Assembly: GCF_900182795.1 (NCBI RefSeq)
Contig: NZ_FXTX01000010.1
Location: 1 to 55,222, forward strand
Source: Venenivibrio stagnispumantis
GTDB lineage: Bacteria; Aquificota; Aquificia; Aquificales; Hydrogenothermaceae
DNA: 55,222 bases
Direction: 5' to 3'
Position numbers and translations under genes: made by a program. The notes below the pieces were generated by a model. The model saw only the letters and a list, made by a program, of their open reading frames with translations, searched no databases and was not told the origin of the DNA. Position 1 is the first letter of the stretch. Each line of letters opens with the position of its first letter. Shown here piece after piece: positions 9,449 through 17,298 of this stretch.

Positions 9449-10603
9449 TTATCTATGTATTTTCTCCCAAACTTTTGTAGCTTCTTTACATTCTTCTATT
9501 GTTGGAACAAGGGCTATTCTGAAATATTCTGATTGGCATATATTTTCTTTTACTTCTGTAGAACTACAGAAATTTTCTCCTATGGAAACTATAATTCCAT
9601 TTTGTATTAGATTTTTCACATAATCTTTTGAAGGTGATTTTATCCATATATAAAATGTTGCTTTTGGATATAGATACTGTAAGCCTATTTTATCTAAAAA
9701 TTCTATCATTATATCTCTTTTTGCTTTAAATATCTGATTTCTTTCTTTAACATGCTCTTCATCTGACCAAGCTTTAGCAGCTGCAAGTTGTATAAAATCC
9801 GGTGAAGCTACTCCAAAATTTGCTCTTTGTTTTTTATATTCCGATATTATTTTTTCATCTCCGGCAATAAATCCAGACCTGTATCCTGTCATTCCGCTTC
9901 TTTTAGATAAAGAATGGAAAACCACTACATTTTCTTTTTCTATTTCAAGTAAAGATAATGGTTTTTCTTCAAAATATATCTCTGTATAACATTCATCAGA
10001 ACAAAGGATTATATTATATTCTTTGCATATATGATATATATCTTCAAGATAACTTTTATCTGCTGTTGCTCCGGTTGGGTTATGTGGATAATTTATCCAG
10101 ACTATTTTTGTTTCTTCTAATATAGATTTTTCTACTTTATCTAATCTGAGTAAAAATTTATCTTCTTCTTTTAGTTTTATAGGAGTAGGTATGCCATTTG
10201 CAAATAATGTGCCTCTTTCATATACCGGATATGCCGGTGTGCCAAATATTACTCTTTTTTTTGCTTCTTCTTCATCTATAAAAACAAGTGGAAAATGAAA
10301 TATCGCTTCTTTTGAGCCGGCAGATGGTATAATCTCTTTATCCGGATTTAACTTTACTCCAAACCTTTTTTCAAACCATACTGAAATTGCATCTCTTAAC
10401 TCTTTTCTTCCGGCTACAGAAGGATATTGGGAGATTTCCGGAATAGAGTTTTTTAAAGCATCTATTATAAATTTTGGTGTTGGTTCCCTTGGGTCTCCTG
10501 TCCCAAAATCATATATCTTTATATTTTTTTCTTTAAGAGATGCTTTTATCTTATTAAGCTCTTCCATTGGATATTCTTTTAACTCTTTTATAAATCTATT
10601 CAT
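9449..10603 (-). CDS. PLP-dependent class I/II aminotransferase (LL-diaminopimelate / succinyl-DAP aminotransferase-like)
   Basis: 'YPHNPTG', '[14 protein letters not shown]' Lys-containing PLP motif; 384 aa; translationally coupled to gyrA. Confidence 0.75.
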
Positions 10604-13600
10604 TCTTTTACCTCTGGATATAAAATAGCTCCTATAACTTTATCTTTAAATAATAACTCTCCAATGGCTGTTCTTTTTGATGTTGGGAATACTTTTTCAT
10701 CTATTTTGGTTTTTAATATTCTGCCGGATTCAAGGGAAAGTATTACTGTATCGTTTATATTTACAGGTAGTATTACAGAAAGGGCATCATCTTTATTTAA
10801 TTTTACAGTCATTAAACCTTTTTGTCCTCTTTTCTTCGTAGGAAATTCTTCTACCGGAACAAGTTTTGCATATCCTTTTTCTGTAATTGTTAAAAGATAC
10901 TTTTTATCCTCTTTTAATAAAAATCCACCTACTACTTCATCTGATGGGTCAAGGTCTATTGCTGATATTCCTTTTGCTTTATCTTTTGTGATTCTTATTT
11001 CATTTCTTTCAAATATTAATAAATCTGCTTTCCTTGTGTATATTCCTAATACCGTGTTATCTTGGTCTGCAAAAGCTGTGCAAAGGGCATCATCTTCATC
11101 AAGAGGCATTATATTATGTGCCTGGGATTTATAAAATATATCTTCATCAGACATTCTTTTTATAAATCCTTTCTTAGATATTAAGAATACTCTATTTTCT
11201 TCTCCTTCTGATTGGTAAGCAGTTCCTACAATATCAGAATCAATATCTATTTTTTCCGGTAAATCTATAACAAGAGACCAATAAGCTGTGGCTTTTTCTG
11301 TAATAAAGCAAACCGGCTTAGAAGAATCTACCATCTGCAATGATATTATTTTTTCTCTTGGAACTGAGCTATTTGATACATCTTGAATAACTTTATTAAA
11401 TAGCTCTTCTTTTGTATAAGGCTCTGCAAGTTTATATTTTATTATTCTTCCACTATTTAAAACTGCAAATATATAATCTTCTTTAAATGTTAAATCTTTC
11501 TCTGCTGATATTATAGATGTTTTTCTTTCATCTGCATATTTTGAGATTATCTCATCCATTTCTTCAATAAATATATTTATCTTTTCTTCTTCGGAAGATA
11601 ATATTTTTTTGTATTTTTCTATATCTAATTTTAGCTGATTTTGTTCTTCTTTTAATTTTTCTGTTTCAAGGGCTGTAAATCTTGATAATCTCATATCAAG
11701 AATAGCATTTGCCTGTTTTTCTGATAAATTAAATTTATCAATCAATTGATTTCTTGCTTCTGATATATCTTTTGCCTTTCTTATTGTATCTATTATATTA
11801 TCAGCATTTTCCAATGCTTTTATTAATCCTTCTAATATATGGGACCTATTTTCTGCTTTTTCTAAATCAAATAAGGTTCTTCTTGTTATTACTTCTAATC
11901 TATGTTTTATAAATTCTGCAAGGATTTCCTTTAATGTCATTACTTTTGGCTGTTTATCTGCAAGGACTGTAAGGTTTATTGGAATATTTTTTTCAAGTGG
12001 TGTGCTTTTATATAATTTTTTCAATACTTTTTCAGGGTCTGCTTCTCTTTTTAGCTCTATTACTATTCTTATTCCGGTTCTGTCTGATTCATCTCTTAAA
12101 TCTGATATTCCTTTTTCTTTTCCTGTTTTTACAAGTTCTGCTATCTTTTTAATAAGTTCTACTTTATTAACCTGATAAGGTATTTCATATATAACTATTC
12201 TTTGCCTGTTTCCGGGAAGTTTTTCTATTCTGGCTTTACCTCTTACGGTTATAGAGCCTTTAGCTGATTTGTAAATATTTATTATCTCTTCTTGTGATGA
12301 TATTATTGTTCCACCTGTTGGAAAATCAGGAGCTTTTATAAATTGACATATTTCTTCTATGGTAGCATCCGGAAATTGGGCAAGATATTTTAATGCTTCT
12401 CCTACTTCCCTTAAATTGTGAGGAGGAATGTTAGTAGCCAAACCTACTGCTATACCGGATGTTCCATTACATATAAAATTAGGAAATTTAGAAGGTAAAA
12501 CCGTTGGCTCTTGTAGGGAAGCATCAAAATTAAGACTCATATCTACAGTATTTTTTTCTATATCTGCAAGCATTTCCATTGCAAGCTTTGTTAATCTTGC
12601 TTCTGTATTGTGATTAATAATTCCATTGGCGACAAAAGAGTGGCAATCACTATTTACCCTTATAGAGTAAACAACTTTTTTTCCGGTTTTTCTTATATTT
12701 TTTACTTTTGCAAAATAATATCTATTTTTTAGTAGTTCTTTTAAAAATTGAATATCATTAAAATCAAATATTTCTTTAATTTGATGCCAGATATTTTCTA
12801 TTTTGTAATATCTGTTTATGTTGAGATTTAAGTTATACTTTCTAAATATATACTCTCTTAAATAAGGTATAAATTCTGTTCTATCTGTTAACCAGTTATT
12901 ATTTTTTAATATATTTTTTAATTTTTTCTGTTTTTCTTCTGTCAAAAATCCTACGTTTTCATAAAATAGCTTTATATTTGAGTATTCTGATATAGATAAA
13001 TAATTGAGATATAAATCTTTTTCTATTTTTGATATAATGCCAAAATTAAGAAGTAAAATCTGGATTTGTTTTAATAGATTTTTGCTTTTAGAAAATAGAT
13101 AGATAGAGCTTTTTTCTTCATCTACTACTGCATCTTTTTCAAACAAAGCTTTTAAAAATGATTTTTGTATATTTTTAGAAGATTTTAAAACAATAGATGG
13201 AATTTCTTTTTCTTTGATTTTCTGGATAACTTTTTTACTTTTTATATTTGAGCTATGCCAATCTCTATCTATTTTATAGTTTAAATTTTCACCTTTTATT
13301 ATATTTCCATAAGCTATATAAGAGCCAAGTAAAACTGCTTCTTCTTCTGTGAGTAAATCTTGGATTGAGTCTATATCATTAAATCTGCTTACTACTATAT
13401 AATCTCCTTCTTTTATTTTATCAAGGGTTTTCCATACATAAACCGGTTTTCTATATTTTGTTTTACTTCTTTCAAAAACTAAAACCGGATGGTTATAACT
13501 TCCTTCTATCTCATATCCTTCTTCTGTTTCTATCTTTATTGTGTAATGTTCTCCACTATTGAAAAACATATCAGAATGATTTATTTTTCTATTTAATGAT

Positions 13601-14067
13601 TGGACTTTTATATCTATTGGATTATCTGAATTCAGCTGGCTGTTTGGAACTAAATCTTTTATTTTTATTAATCCTTTATCTGTATTTATTAATGTATCTC
13701 CGACAACGCAATATCTCATTGCTGCCGGTGGGTCTCCATCTATTGAGCCAAAGTTTCCCTGTCCTTCAATAAGTGGATATCTTAATGTGAAATCCTGTGC
13801 CATTCTAACAAGTGCATCATAAACAGCTGCATCTCCATGGGGGTGATACTTTGCTATAACGTTTCCTACCGTTCTTGCTGATTTCTTGTATGGTTTATTA
13901 GGATGCATTCCTTCTTCATACATTGCATAAAGTATTCTTCTTTGAACCGGTTTTAAACCATCTCTAACATCCGGAATAGCCCTTCCAACTATAACAGACA
14001 TTGCATAATCTATATAAGAGCTTTTAACTTCTTCTTCTATCGGAACTTTAATGATTTCTTCTGACAT
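10600..14067 (-). CDS. gyrA: DNA gyrase subunit A, intein-containing precursor (exteins ~787 aa + 368-aa intein)
   Basis: N-terminal '[11 protein letters not shown]', 'YHPHGD', 'AAMRY|...|TEARL' split by insertion; C-terminal beta-pinwheel repeats. Confidence 0.95.
12607..13710 (-). mobile_element. GyrA intein (Mxe GyrA-like Hint domain split by a LAGLIDADG-type endonuclease-like domain)
   Basis: begins with Cys after catalytic Tyr, block B 'NHP', ends 'HN' followed by Thr; boundaries derived by codon counting (codons 120-487 of the ORF). Confidence 0.9.
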
Positions 14068-14151: not shown

Positions 14152-14724
14152 TTAAAATATATCTGCCAAGTTAATTTCGCTATTGAATATAGAAATTTTT
14201 TCATCTTTTTTAAAGATATGTATTTCTTTAAAAAATTTACCGGCTGGGTTTGTGTATTTTTCAATGATATTTTCTTTTAAATTCACAATCCAGACTTCTT
14301 TTGCTTTTCCTTTTGCATATATTGGTAGTTTTATCTGTTTGTCATATTCAATAGTTGTATCTGATATTTCTATTATTAAATAAGCATCTGATATATGTGG
14401 TATATCTTCCTTTTGATATATGCTCTCAGGATAGATAGCTATATCCGGATATAAAAGTTCTTTATTTGATTTTTTTATTGGATTTTGAGACCATATTATA
14501 TATTTTTCATTTTTCAGATATATTATTTCATAAAGTTTTTTTTCTAATCTTTCTAAAACTTTTGCATGCCTAAATCCAATAGGTGTCATCATAATGGGCT
14601 TTCCATCTATAAGTTCTATTTTATTATCTGGTTTGATTAATCCAAATTCATACATTTTTTGCAGTTGTGCTATTGTAAATTTATAAATTTTAAGTTTTAT
14701 ATTTTTTTCAGATAATAATGGCAT
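14152..14724 (-). CDS. Uma2-family endonuclease (DUF820, PD-(D/E)xK fold)
   Basis: 190 aa; 'LIDGKPIMMTPIGFRH', 'PDIAIY', 'LIIEISDTT...AKGKAKEVWIVN' pattern typical of Uma2 family. Confidence 0.8.
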   Translation of the reverse strand: MPLLSEKNIKLKIYKFTIAQLQKMYEFGLIKPDNKIELIDGKPIMMTPIGFRHAKVLERLEKKLYEIIYLKNEKYIIWSQNPIKKSNKELLYPDIAIYPESIYQKEDIPHISDAYLIIEISDTTIEYDKQIKLPIYAKGKAKEVWIVNLKENIIEKYTNPAGKFFKEIHIFKKDEKISIFNSEINLADIF

Positions 14725-14850: not shown

Positions 14851-15420
14851 TTGATAGAAAATGTAGAGTTATTTTTACAGCAGTATGGGTATATTGCTGT
14901 ATTTATAGGCACTTTTATAGAGGGAGAGGTTTTTCTTATTATTACCGGTTTTTTTATTAAACATGGTTTTTTAAATCCGACTTTATCTTTTATATTTGGA
15001 ATACTTGGAGCATTAATTCACGAGCTTATATATTTTTATCTTGGAAAATGGAAAGGAAGACAGATTTTACTTGGGAATAGATATACCAGAAAAAAATATA
15101 AAAAAGCAAAACAGATAATAGAAAAATATGGATTATTGGCAATTTTCTTAGTTAGATTTATGTATGGAATGAGAGTTATTCCTATGCTTATTTTCGGAGC
15201 TACCGGTTTTAATGCCTTAAAATTTATATTTTTTGATATAATTTCATTATCTATTTGGGCTGTATTTTTTATATCTGCCGGTTATTTTTTAGGACATACT
15301 GCAGAATATATATTTGGAAAAGCTAAAGAATATTATTTAATATTTGGATTAATTATAATATTTATCGGATTGATTTGGATTTTAATACATTATGCTAAAA
15401 AAAGTGAGGAAAAAAAATGA
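14851..15420 (+). CDS. DedA-family membrane protein
   Basis: 'YGYIAVFIGTFIEGE' and 'GMRVIPMLIFGATG' DedA/SNARE-associated motifs; TTG start. Confidence 0.85.
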   Translation: MIENVELFLQQYGYIAVFIGTFIEGEVFLIITGFFIKHGFLNPTLSFIFGILGALIHELIYFYLGKWKGRQILLGNRYTRKKYKKAKQIIEKYGLLAIFLVRFMYGMRVIPMLIFGATGFNALKFIFFDIISLSIWAVFFISAGYFLGHTAEYIFGKAKEYYLIFGLIIIFIGLIWILIHYAKKSEEKK

Positions 15421-16325
15421 AAGATTTATTATCGGTTAAACAGCTAAATAAACAACAAGTTATGGATATTTTTAATATAGCAAAAGATTATAAAACAAGA
15501 TATAAAGCCGGAGAAAGAAAATTTACAGATTTGAAAGGTTATTCTATATTACTTCCATTTTTTGAAAATTCTACAAGAACAAGAACATCTTTTGAACTTG
15601 CAGGTAAAATACTTGGAGCAGATACAATAAATATCTCTGCATCTGCTTCTTCTGTTAAAAAAGGAGAAACTTTATATGATACTGCAAAAACCCTTGAAGC
15701 TTTAAATACAGATTTTATTGTTATAAGACATTATATGTCAGGGGCACCTTTTCTTATTGCAAAAGAGGTTAAATCTCATGTAATAAATGCCGGAGATGGA
15801 ACAAATGAACATCCATCTCAAGCTTTCCTTGATGCTTTTACTATTTTAGAAAAAAAAGGAAAAATAGAAGGTCTAAAAATAGCTATAATAGGAGATATTT
15901 TACATAGTAGAGTAGCCCGTTCTGACTCTATTTTATTTAAAAAATTTGGAGCTACTGTTATATTTTGTGCTCCAATCACAATGCTTCCAAGACATACAGA
16001 AGGTTTAACAGCAGATTATATTACCACAAATATAGAAGAAGCTCTTTCAGAATGTGATGTAGCAATATTTTTAAGAATACAACTTGAAAGACAAGAAAAA
16101 CCATATTTTTCCACTCTTAATGAATACTCTGCAAAATATGGATTAAATAAAGAAAGATTAAAAATAATGAAAAAGGACGCATTAATAATGCATCCGGGAC
16201 CTGTAAATAGAGGTGTAGAAATTCAAAGTGAAATTGTTTATTCAAACCAATCTATAATTTTAGACCAAGTAGAAAATGGTTTATTTGTTAGAATGGCTAT
16301 CTATAAATATCTATTAAATGTTTGA
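15417..16325 (+). CDS. pyrB: aspartate carbamoyltransferase catalytic subunit
   Basis: 'STRTRTSFE', 'HPSQA', 'HSRVARS', C-terminal 'HPGPVNRG' (ATCase-type rather than OTCase). Confidence 0.9.
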   Translation: MKDLLSVKQLNKQQVMDIFNIAKDYKTRYKAGERKFTDLKGYSILLPFFENSTRTRTSFELAGKILGADTINISASASSVKKGETLYDTAKTLEALNTDFIVIRHYMSGAPFLIAKEVKSHVINAGDGTNEHPSQAFLDAFTILEKKGKIEGLKIAIIGDILHSRVARSDSILFKKFGATVIFCAPITMLPRHTEGLTADYITTNIEEALSECDVAIFLRIQLERQEKPYFSTLNEYSAKYGLNKERLKIMKKDALIMHPGPVNRGVEIQSEIVYSNQSIILDQVENGLFVRMAIYKYLLNV

Positions 16326-16383
16326 TATACACTATCTTGATTTAAAAATAAAACAGTGTTATATTTTTTATGGAGGTTTTTAA

Positions 16384-17298
16384 ATGAAAAAAGATTTTTT
16401 ATCGGTTTCTGATTTAGAAAGAGAGGAAGTTTTAGAGATTATTGATTATGCAGAAAAATTAAAAAAAGAGCCATTTAGCGACAAATCTTTGCAGAATAAA
16501 TCTGTTGGTCTTATTTTTATGAAGCAATCAACAAGGACAAGATTATCTTTTGAGGTGGGAGTTTATCAACTTGGAGGACAACCTTTATATATATCCGGTT
16601 CCACAACCCAATTAAGCAGAGGAGAAGATATAAAAGATACGGCAAGAGTTATGTCAAGATATTTGGATATGATAGTTATAAGGACATTTTCACATAAAGA
16701 AGTAGAAGAGCTTGCAGAATATTCTTCTATCCCTGTTATAAATGCATTAACAGATTATCTTCATCCATGTCAAGTTATGGCAGATTTACAGACCATAAAA
16801 GAAAGATTTGGAAGATTAGAAGGTTTAAAGCTGGCTTATATTGGTGATGGAAATAATATGGCAAATACATTGTTAATAGCCTGTGGTTTAATGGGAATTG
16901 ATATATCTGTTGCCACACCTTCCGGATTTGAACCAAATGGAAAAGCAGTAGCAGAAAGCATAGAGCTTGCAAAAAAATCCGGAGCAAAGATAGAAATAAC
17001 GAACGACCCAAAAAAAGCAGCTTTAAATGCTAATATACTTTATACAGATGTTTGGGTAAGTATGGGTCAAGAAAATGAAAAAAGTAAAAAAGAACTTTTT
17101 AAAGGATTTAGCATAAACAAAGATTTGGTTGCAATAGCTTCACCGGATGTTATTGTAATGCATTGCCTACCTGCCCATAAAGGAGAAGAGATAACAGAAG
17201 ATGTATTTGAAGAATTTGCAGATGTTATTTTTGACCAGGCTGAAAATAGATTACATATACAAAAAGCATTAATGAGCTATCTAATTAAAAATATATAG
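16384..17298 (+). CDS. argF: ornithine carbamoyltransferase
   Basis: 'STRTRLSFE', 'DxxxSMG'-type 'TDVWVSMG', 'HCLPAHKGEE' OTCase signature. Confidence 0.9.
   Translation: MKKDFLSVSDLEREEVLEIIDYAEKLKKEPFSDKSLQNKSVGLIFMKQSTRTRLSFEVGVYQLGGQPLYISGSTTQLSRGEDIKDTARVMSRYLDMIVIRTFSHKEVEELAEYSSIPVINALTDYLHPCQVMADLQTIKERFGRLEGLKLAYIGDGNNMANTLLIACGLMGIDISVATPSGFEPNGKAVAESIELAKKSGAKIEITNDPKKAALNANILYTDVWVSMGQENEKSKKELFKGFSINKDLVAIASPDVIVMHCLPAHKGEEITEDVFEEFADVIFDQAENRLHIQKALMSYLIKNI

Follow-up and report, generated by a model that had tools for sequence, protein, structure and literature searches.

The stretch of DNA considered here, referred to as the window, comprises 55,222 nucleotides of contig NZ_FXTX01000010.1 from Venenivibrio stagnispumantis, a member of the Hydrogenothermaceae in the phylum Aquificota. 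On its minus strand, an open reading frame (ORF) for the A subunit of DNA gyrase, gyrA, codes for a precursor of 1155 amino acids (aa), in which an intein is inserted directly after the catalytic Tyr (Table 1). The same protein is recorded for V. stagnispumantis as SMP12873.1 and GAB6071889.1, and was also identified on a 1.58-Mb contig of assembly GCA_054656855.1. It matches the Pfam profiles DNA_topoisoIV (6.9e-152), with the match split around the insert, and DNA_gyraseA_C. A sequence-only reading of the window had described an insert of 368 codons in this gene; its coordinates proved to be exact, and all peptide strings quoted there are present in the protein.

The N-extein ends with ...GDPPAAMRY, followed by the intein start CVVGDTLIN..., and the intein end ...GIINHN is followed by the C-extein TEARLTKL.... 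Without the intein, the Venenivibrio gyrA site reads GATGGAGACCCACCGGCAGCAATGAGATAT on one side of the junction and ACAGAAGCAAGATTAACAAAGCTTGCAATG on the other. When the insert was removed in silico, the first 485 residues aligned without a gap across AAMRY-TEARL to the GyrA structure 4ddq of the Protein Data Bank (PDB), with an E-value of 1.1e-168, and the spliced extein was also contiguous in comparison to the intein-free gyrA of Sulfurihydrogenibium. This confirmed the predicted junctions, with an insertion immediately behind the catalytic Tyr, a Cys at the start and His-Asn before Thr at the end.

The insert alone was identified by the profiles Intein_splicing of Pfam (PF14890; 3.2e-17, 63 bits compared to a cutoff of 35.8), intein_Nterm of NCBIfam (TIGR01445; 1.1e-11, 45.5 bits compared to a cutoff of 24.5) and LAGLIDADG_3 of Pfam (3.9e-12). 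These are the matches to Hint and LAGLIDADG models that the sequence-only reading had expected for an intein, and neither their absence nor a break in the flanking GyrA, which would both have spoken against one, was found. A phmmer search against all PDB sequences identified the Mxe GyrA intein, 1am2, with an E-value of 2.5e-25. The two aligned stretches, at insert residues 2-109 and 324-368, correspond to both splicing halves; the likeness to this mini-intein had been noted correctly in the sequence-only reading. To the intact alleles of other Hydrogenothermaceae, the N-terminal splicing half is 71-81% identical and the C-terminal half 76-84%.

Block B, GSYNHPV, pairs with GTANHPL of the Mxe intein, with Ser in place of Thr in all Hydrogenothermaceae alleles. 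All canonical class-1 splicing residues are present, namely Cys1, the His of the block-B pattern (T/S)xxH, the penultimate His, the terminal Asn and Thr+1, and together with the contiguous flanks and the match to Hint profiles and the Hint fold they assign the element to the class-1 inteins. Its position right after the active-site Tyr of AAMRY-TE and its homology to the Mxe GyrA intein identify it as Mxe GyrA-type. A class-3 intein was considered for the Cys in ...NSDCHSF, and was ruled out by the presence of Cys1 and by the Ser in VYS, as in Mxe, at the position which we take to be F:4 by block numbering and the alignment to Mxe GyrA. The Mxe GyrA mini-intein (1am2 / 4oz6) and the mycobacterial GyrA inteins share with the Venenivibrio copy the insertion after the catalytic Tyr, Cys1, the N-H of block B, His-Asn and Thr+1. 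The Mxe intein, from an actinobacterial host, has 198 aa and has lost its endonuclease almost wholly, whereas the intein of the Aquificota thermophile retains a nuclease remnant of 213 residues with one intact half-domain.

We infer from the sequence that the precursor splices itself to yield an active gyrase, because gyrA is essential, the exteins and splicing blocks are under strong purifying selection and a second gyrA was not found at this locus.

Table 1. Features of the gyrA locus and neighbouring genes, with positions in the window
Feature	Position	Strand	Description	Basis
gyrA precursor ORF	10600..14067	minus	1155 aa = 788-aa gyrase A + 368-aa intein	ORF listing
N-extein	13711..14067	minus	aa 1-119; last residue is the catalytic Tyr of AAMRY	alignment to solved GyrA
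Intein	12607..13710	minus	aa 120-487; 368 aa/codons; Cys1 to His-Asn, then Thr+1	Pfam, NCBIfam, phmmer, AlphaFold
N-terminal splicing half of Hint domain	13381..13710	minus	intein aa 1-110; block A with Cys1, block B (S-x-N-H) GSYNHPV	aligns to Mxe GyrA 3-108
Degenerate LAGLIDADG motif 1 (block C)	13303..13332	minus	intein aa 127-136; Tyr for catalytic Glu/Asp	comparison with intact xLGxxxSEGx
First LAGLIDADG half-domain remnant	13159..13302	minus	48 residues compared to 84-96; beta-strands deleted	alignment, AlphaFold, no LAGLIDADG_3 match
LAGLIDADG motif 2 (block E)	13123..13158	minus	intein aa 185-196; FEGDG changed to FEKDA	Asp kept, both flanking Gly lost
Second LAGLIDADG half-domain	12949..13167	minus	alpha-beta-beta-alpha-beta-beta-alpha fold intact	Pfam LAGLIDADG_3 and model
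C-terminal splicing half	12607..12741	minus	intein aa 324-368; blocks F and G	aligns to Mxe GyrA 155-199
C-extein	10600..12606	minus	aa 488-1155; first residue Thr+1 (TEARL...)	Pfam, alignment to solved GyrA
Class I/II aminotransferase gene	9449..10603	minus	downstream of gyrA	
Uma2-family ORF	14152..14724	minus	putative restriction endonuclease, directly upstream of gyrA	PF05685, 1.9e-21
Carbamoyltransferase-fold gene pair	15417..17298	plus	302 and 304 aa	OTCace_N + OTCace

The endonuclease remnant

The region between the splicing halves was identified as a degenerate LAGLIDADG homing endonuclease. The motif cores of intact inteins at the same gyrA site are SEG and FEGDG; in the Venenivibrio intein they read AYG, with Tyr at the acidic position of motif 1, and FEKDA, an only partly conserved motif 2. 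This degeneration had been noted in the sequence-only reading. The description of the domain as full-size was not borne out, since the intein has 368 aa compared to 406-449 in intact members and 48 residues between the two motifs compared to 84-96. In comparison to the intact 416-aa alleles of the family, two deletions of about 26 and about 15 residues (about 41 in total) lie within the first half-domain, and smaller ones were found after motif 2 and in the linker. Identity to these alleles is 71-84% in the splicing halves and 46-50% in the nuclease region. The 416-aa allele type contains two LAGLIDADG_3 repeats by Pfam (83-92 bits), and the Venenivibrio copy only one, at insert residues 182-254 (46 bits).

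An AlphaFold model of the intein, built on an alignment of 46 sequences, gave a pLDDT of 92 and a pTM of 0.90, while a run on the single sequence was unusable (pLDDT 35). The Hint domain, the second half-domain and the helical linker were modelled with confidence. The sole stretch of low confidence comprises residues 138-158 (pLDDT below 50, predicted to be disordered), immediately behind the first LAGLIDADG helix and at the place expected for the beta-strands of the first half-domain. The second half-domain was modelled with helices at residues 179-193, 210-221 and 243-252 and strands at 194-197, 202-207, 228-231 and 236-241. In a Foldseek search against the PDB, the top folds were the intein endonucleases PI-PfuI, TliVMA, PhoVMA, PI-TkoII and PI-SceI; the Mxe GyrA intein was found with a TM-score of 0.85, normalised to the target 1am2.

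LAGLIDADG enzymes require one acidic residue from each motif. In an active enzyme with two motifs, such a residue ends each helix, and two complete half-domains form the DNA-binding saddle. In the Venenivibrio remnant, Tyr ends motif 1 while the Asp of motif 2 is kept, and the first half-domain is incomplete. Because the motif-1 acid and the first half of the saddle are lost, the endonuclease is most likely inactive, as judged from sequence and model, and an empty gyrA site would no longer be cut.

A comparable case is the VMA intein of Pyrococcus horikoshii (PhoVMA; PDB 7qst), whose degenerate nuclease domain is without active-site aspartates; in vitro, it showed no binding or cleavage of its site (PMC8966425). 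PhoVMA was found as a structural match, and it is likewise a large intein which has lost its LAGLIDADG acids and suffered deletions while its overall architecture persists. It differs in its host protein and its unrelated insertion site, and its nuclease surface is acidic (pI 5.45), in contrast to the basic Venenivibrio remnant (pI 9.08).

Inteins at the same site and selection in Venenivibrio

When GTDB species genomes were scanned with the complete precursor, eight loci from Hydrogenothermaceae were obtained. An intact, colinear intein of 416 aa was identified at the same gyrA site in four of them (L008, from a Hydrogenothermus metagenome-assembled genome, L009, L010 and L014), and the empty site AAMRYTEARL in the other four (L011, from Sulfurihydrogenibium yellowstonense, L012, L013 and L015). 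The 416-aa inteins share site and lineage with the Venenivibrio copy and are colinear with it apart from the deletions; unlike it, they keep LLGSLVSEGY, FLxALFEGDGSV and both half-domains, and their nuclease is strongly constrained. Partly decayed alleles are present in Venenivibrio and in P0014, and P0042 is a metagenomic copy of 263 aa whose extein groups near the Hydrogenothermaceae. Intein-free GyrA was also found in Hydrogenothermus marinus and a Persephonella species.

The sister clade Sulfurihydrogenibium has an empty site, and in the extein tree Venenivibrio is placed beside this intein-free clade; in the intein tree, its intein stands beside the intact Hydrogenothermaceae alleles. By extein sequence, the empty-site locus L015 falls within the group of L008 and L009, which both bear the intein. 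Within the family, the two trees are roughly congruent; the six to nine taxa are too few to decide between vertical descent accompanied by losses and homing inside the family. By these trees, the distribution would agree with either a long-standing resident of the family that was lost from some members or ancient homing among them.

In a draft genome of Hydrogenivirga sp. 128-5-R1-1, gyrA (P0011 / P0001) contains the same intein with motif 1 intact; on a contig of 3.7 kb, its reading frame is interrupted within the nuclease domain. This interruption might stem from a sequencing frameshift or be an artefact of the contig end. The GyrA of Hydrogenivirga caldilitoris (P0247, 781 aa) has no intein.

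The wider family became visible only when 1.84 billion representative proteins were searched exhaustively with HMMER, with 3861 matches up to an E-value of 0.001, 71 of which had E<=1e-30; a word-indexed protein search with the intein found only 6 relatives. Of the best 150 representative matches, 59 represent GyrA that is interrupted by an intein at this junction. Intact-looking members of this group carry xLGxxxSEGx and FLxxLFEGDGSV, and further-decayed copies of 254-372 aa were found as well. The site had been described as known from mycobacteria and some archaea; it is indeed occupied, but the distribution is far wider and includes jumbo phages.

Intein-containing GyrA was identified in the Staphylococcus jumbo phages Machias, Madawaska, MarsHill, S6, PALS_2 and others (e.g., MW349128.1, 238447-239565). 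These are annotated as intein-containing genes, and the inteins align to the Venenivibrio one, over its full length in 4 of 11 records; they differ in being phage-encoded and only 28-32% identical. Since jumbo phages encode related GyrA inteins, phages are possible vehicles for this intein family. The closest full-length relatives in the word-indexed search, P0002 and P0003, are 35-37% identical, have intact nuclease motifs and lie on phage-like contigs. At locus L005 (4001-5683), gyrB-gyrA adjoin Phage_ProQ_C_like and DUF4942 genes, and at L006 (60-4391) and L007 a free-standing GIY-YIG endonuclease ORF interrupts gyrA in addition, and recA follows the gene.

Within Venenivibrio, three alleles were compared, the window copy, P0008 and P0010. 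The latter two are about 96% identical to the window allele and originate from independent metagenomes; they show the same gene neighbourhood and are colinear and free of stop codons. All three carry the intein with the same endonuclease lesions, and the decay is therefore older than their divergence. The element had been proposed to be fixed. Among 5.8 billion protein clusters, no intein-free GyrA was found with more than 82% identity to the Venenivibrio extein, which agrees with fixation in the genus.

The ratio dN/dS was determined from Nei-Gojobori counts summed over the three alleles. For the nuclease and linker, 22 synonymous and 20 non-synonymous changes gave 0.20, compared to 0.04 for the splicing blocks (17 and 3) and 0.08 for the exteins (69 and 20). 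The endonuclease region evolves about 5 times faster than the splicing blocks, and its relaxation is significant against the splicing blocks (Fisher P = 0.023) as well as against the exteins (P = 0.005). The nuclease of the intact 416-aa alleles is, by contrast, as constrained as the splicing blocks (dN/dS 0.05-0.12), with dS saturated for some pairs.

The low GC content of the intein, 24.0% compared to 29.6-37.8% in the exteins, prompted the consideration of a recent foreign import. This was ruled out by the GC content at third codon positions (GC3), which is host-like with 0.163 compared to 0.152 +/- 0.021 for 30 other ORFs of the window; the low overall value results from codon positions 1 and 2, that is, from amino acid composition. 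GC3 thus gives no sign of recent acquisition. Horizontal spread, which the occurrence of the intein had seemed to hint at, is not supported as a recent event, since GC3 equals that of the host and, within the family, the intein tree follows that of the exteins in rough outline.

Probable position in the homing cycle

The favoured explanation, to which we assign a probability of about 0.88, is that the gyrA of Venenivibrio contains a splicing class-1 intein of the Mxe GyrA type whose endonuclease has decayed, and that the element is an immobile, vertically inherited resident. The precursor would be translated as a whole, and the Hint domain would excise the insert and join the exteins, recreating AAMRY-TEARL and an active gyrase. 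The embedded endonuclease would descend from the intact 416-aa allele type, which is still present in related Hydrogenothermaceae, and the Venenivibrio lineage would have lost the motif-1 acid, both motif-2 glycines and the beta-sheet which forms the DNA-binding saddle of the first half-domain. The intein would thus represent the stage of degeneration after fixation. Such a degeneration belongs to the textbook homing cycle (PMC7765530). The remnant probably stays in frame and moderately constrained because at about 70 °C a misfolded insert would prevent an essential enzyme from maturing.

Several observations weigh against this explanation. Asp is retained in motif 2, and the second half-domain is structurally intact. 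The remnant has a basic pI of 9.08, compared to 9.2-9.5 in intact alleles, and the nuclease region evolves far below neutrality (binomial P = 7e-7). The dN/dS estimates draw on no more than about 40 substitutions in the three alleles. The claim of a decayed endonuclease is supported by relaxation, and the region is nevertheless under purifying selection and not neutral. Because of the Asp, the intact half-domain and the basic pI, a residual DNA affinity, nicking or a structural or other selected role of the remnant may persist, and the sub-neutral dN/dS fits either interpretation. One such possibility is that the truncated remnant has been co-opted and is on the way to domestication, being selected because it makes gyrase splicing in the thermophile efficient or dependent on temperature or redox state, or because it acts as a DNA-binding module. 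The dN/dS far below 1 in three alleles without a frameshift, the well-folded model of the second half-domain and the basic character of the remnant would agree with this, and some inteins can lose their splicing activity when the endonuclease domain is taken out (PMC7765530). We consider it unlikely, since the constraint is 2-3 times weaker than on the nuclease of intact alleles and 5 times weaker than on the splicing blocks, the in-frame upkeep is already explained by the essentiality of gyrA, and the region is dispensable for the splicing domain, as shown by same-site copies of 254-272 aa (P0042, P0080, P0109, P0116 and P0151) and by the Mxe mini-intein.

Still less probable is an endonuclease which remains active, as a nickase or weak double-strand cutter, in a mobile intein. 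The retained Asp and the intact second half-domain would favour such an activity, and related genera offer empty sites with near-identical sequence around the junction; but motif 1 has Tyr in an enzyme type that uses one acid per motif, the whole beta-saddle of half-domain 1 is gone, and PhoVMA, which has lost its active-site aspartates, neither cut nor bound its site (PMC8966425). A misassembled insert or a pseudogenised gyrA can practically be dismissed. It could be suspected from the gene model of the Prokaryotic Genome Annotation Pipeline (PGAP), which is N-terminally truncated to 1039 aa, and from a record named 'hypothetical protein', but the truncated model is probably an error in start-site annotation, the identical 1155-aa ORF is present on five contigs, one of them of 1.58 Mb, two more alleles from independent metagenomes are colinear and free of stops, and the exteins show a dN/dS of 0.08.

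The gyrA intein of Venenivibrio is genuine, and it is an ordinary case of a familiar type of element. GyrA is among the top bacterial intein hosts, and the phyla in the 2015 survey by Novikova et al. include the Aquificae (PMC4760082, Table 1). In a literature search, no paper was found that mentions Venenivibrio together with inteins, and for GyrA inteins and Aquificae only irrelevant methods use was found. The Hydrogenothermaceae provide a compact natural series of the homing cycle, with empty sites, the intact 416-aa intein, partly decayed alleles and the 263-aa copy, which could be used to study the rate and order of homing endonuclease decay. The Mxe GyrA intein is a widely used tool in biotechnology. 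With a host that grows near 70 °C, the Venenivibrio intein can be regarded as a thermostable relative of this tool. The practical value is modest, and the current understanding of inteins is unchanged.

Annotation and neighbouring genes

The finding is also of value for annotation, since the intein is unflagged in public records. The RefSeq protein from PGAP, WP_265133884.1, has 1039 aa and starts at Met117 (MRYC...), so that the first 116 residues of the N-extein (window 13719-14067, minus strand) are dropped; this is probably an error in the start site caused by the intein. In another record, the full 1155-aa product is named 'hypothetical protein'. The NCBIfam model NF038098, 'intein-containing DNA gyrase subunit A', which is of the 'exception' type, misses the protein with 867 bits, below its curated cutoff of 1850. 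The score is far under this cutoff, and automatic naming therefore does not flag the intein.

Further inteins in the window were not found by a Pfam scan of ten ORFs, including the eight longest besides gyrA. The stop codon of gyrA and the start of the aminotransferase gene downstream overlap by 4 nucleotides (window 10600-10603), which suggests translational coupling of the two genes. The arrangement of the Uma2-family ORF and gyrA is kept in all three Venenivibrio alleles. The two neighbouring genes with a carbamoyltransferase fold are presumably pyrB and argF, side by side.

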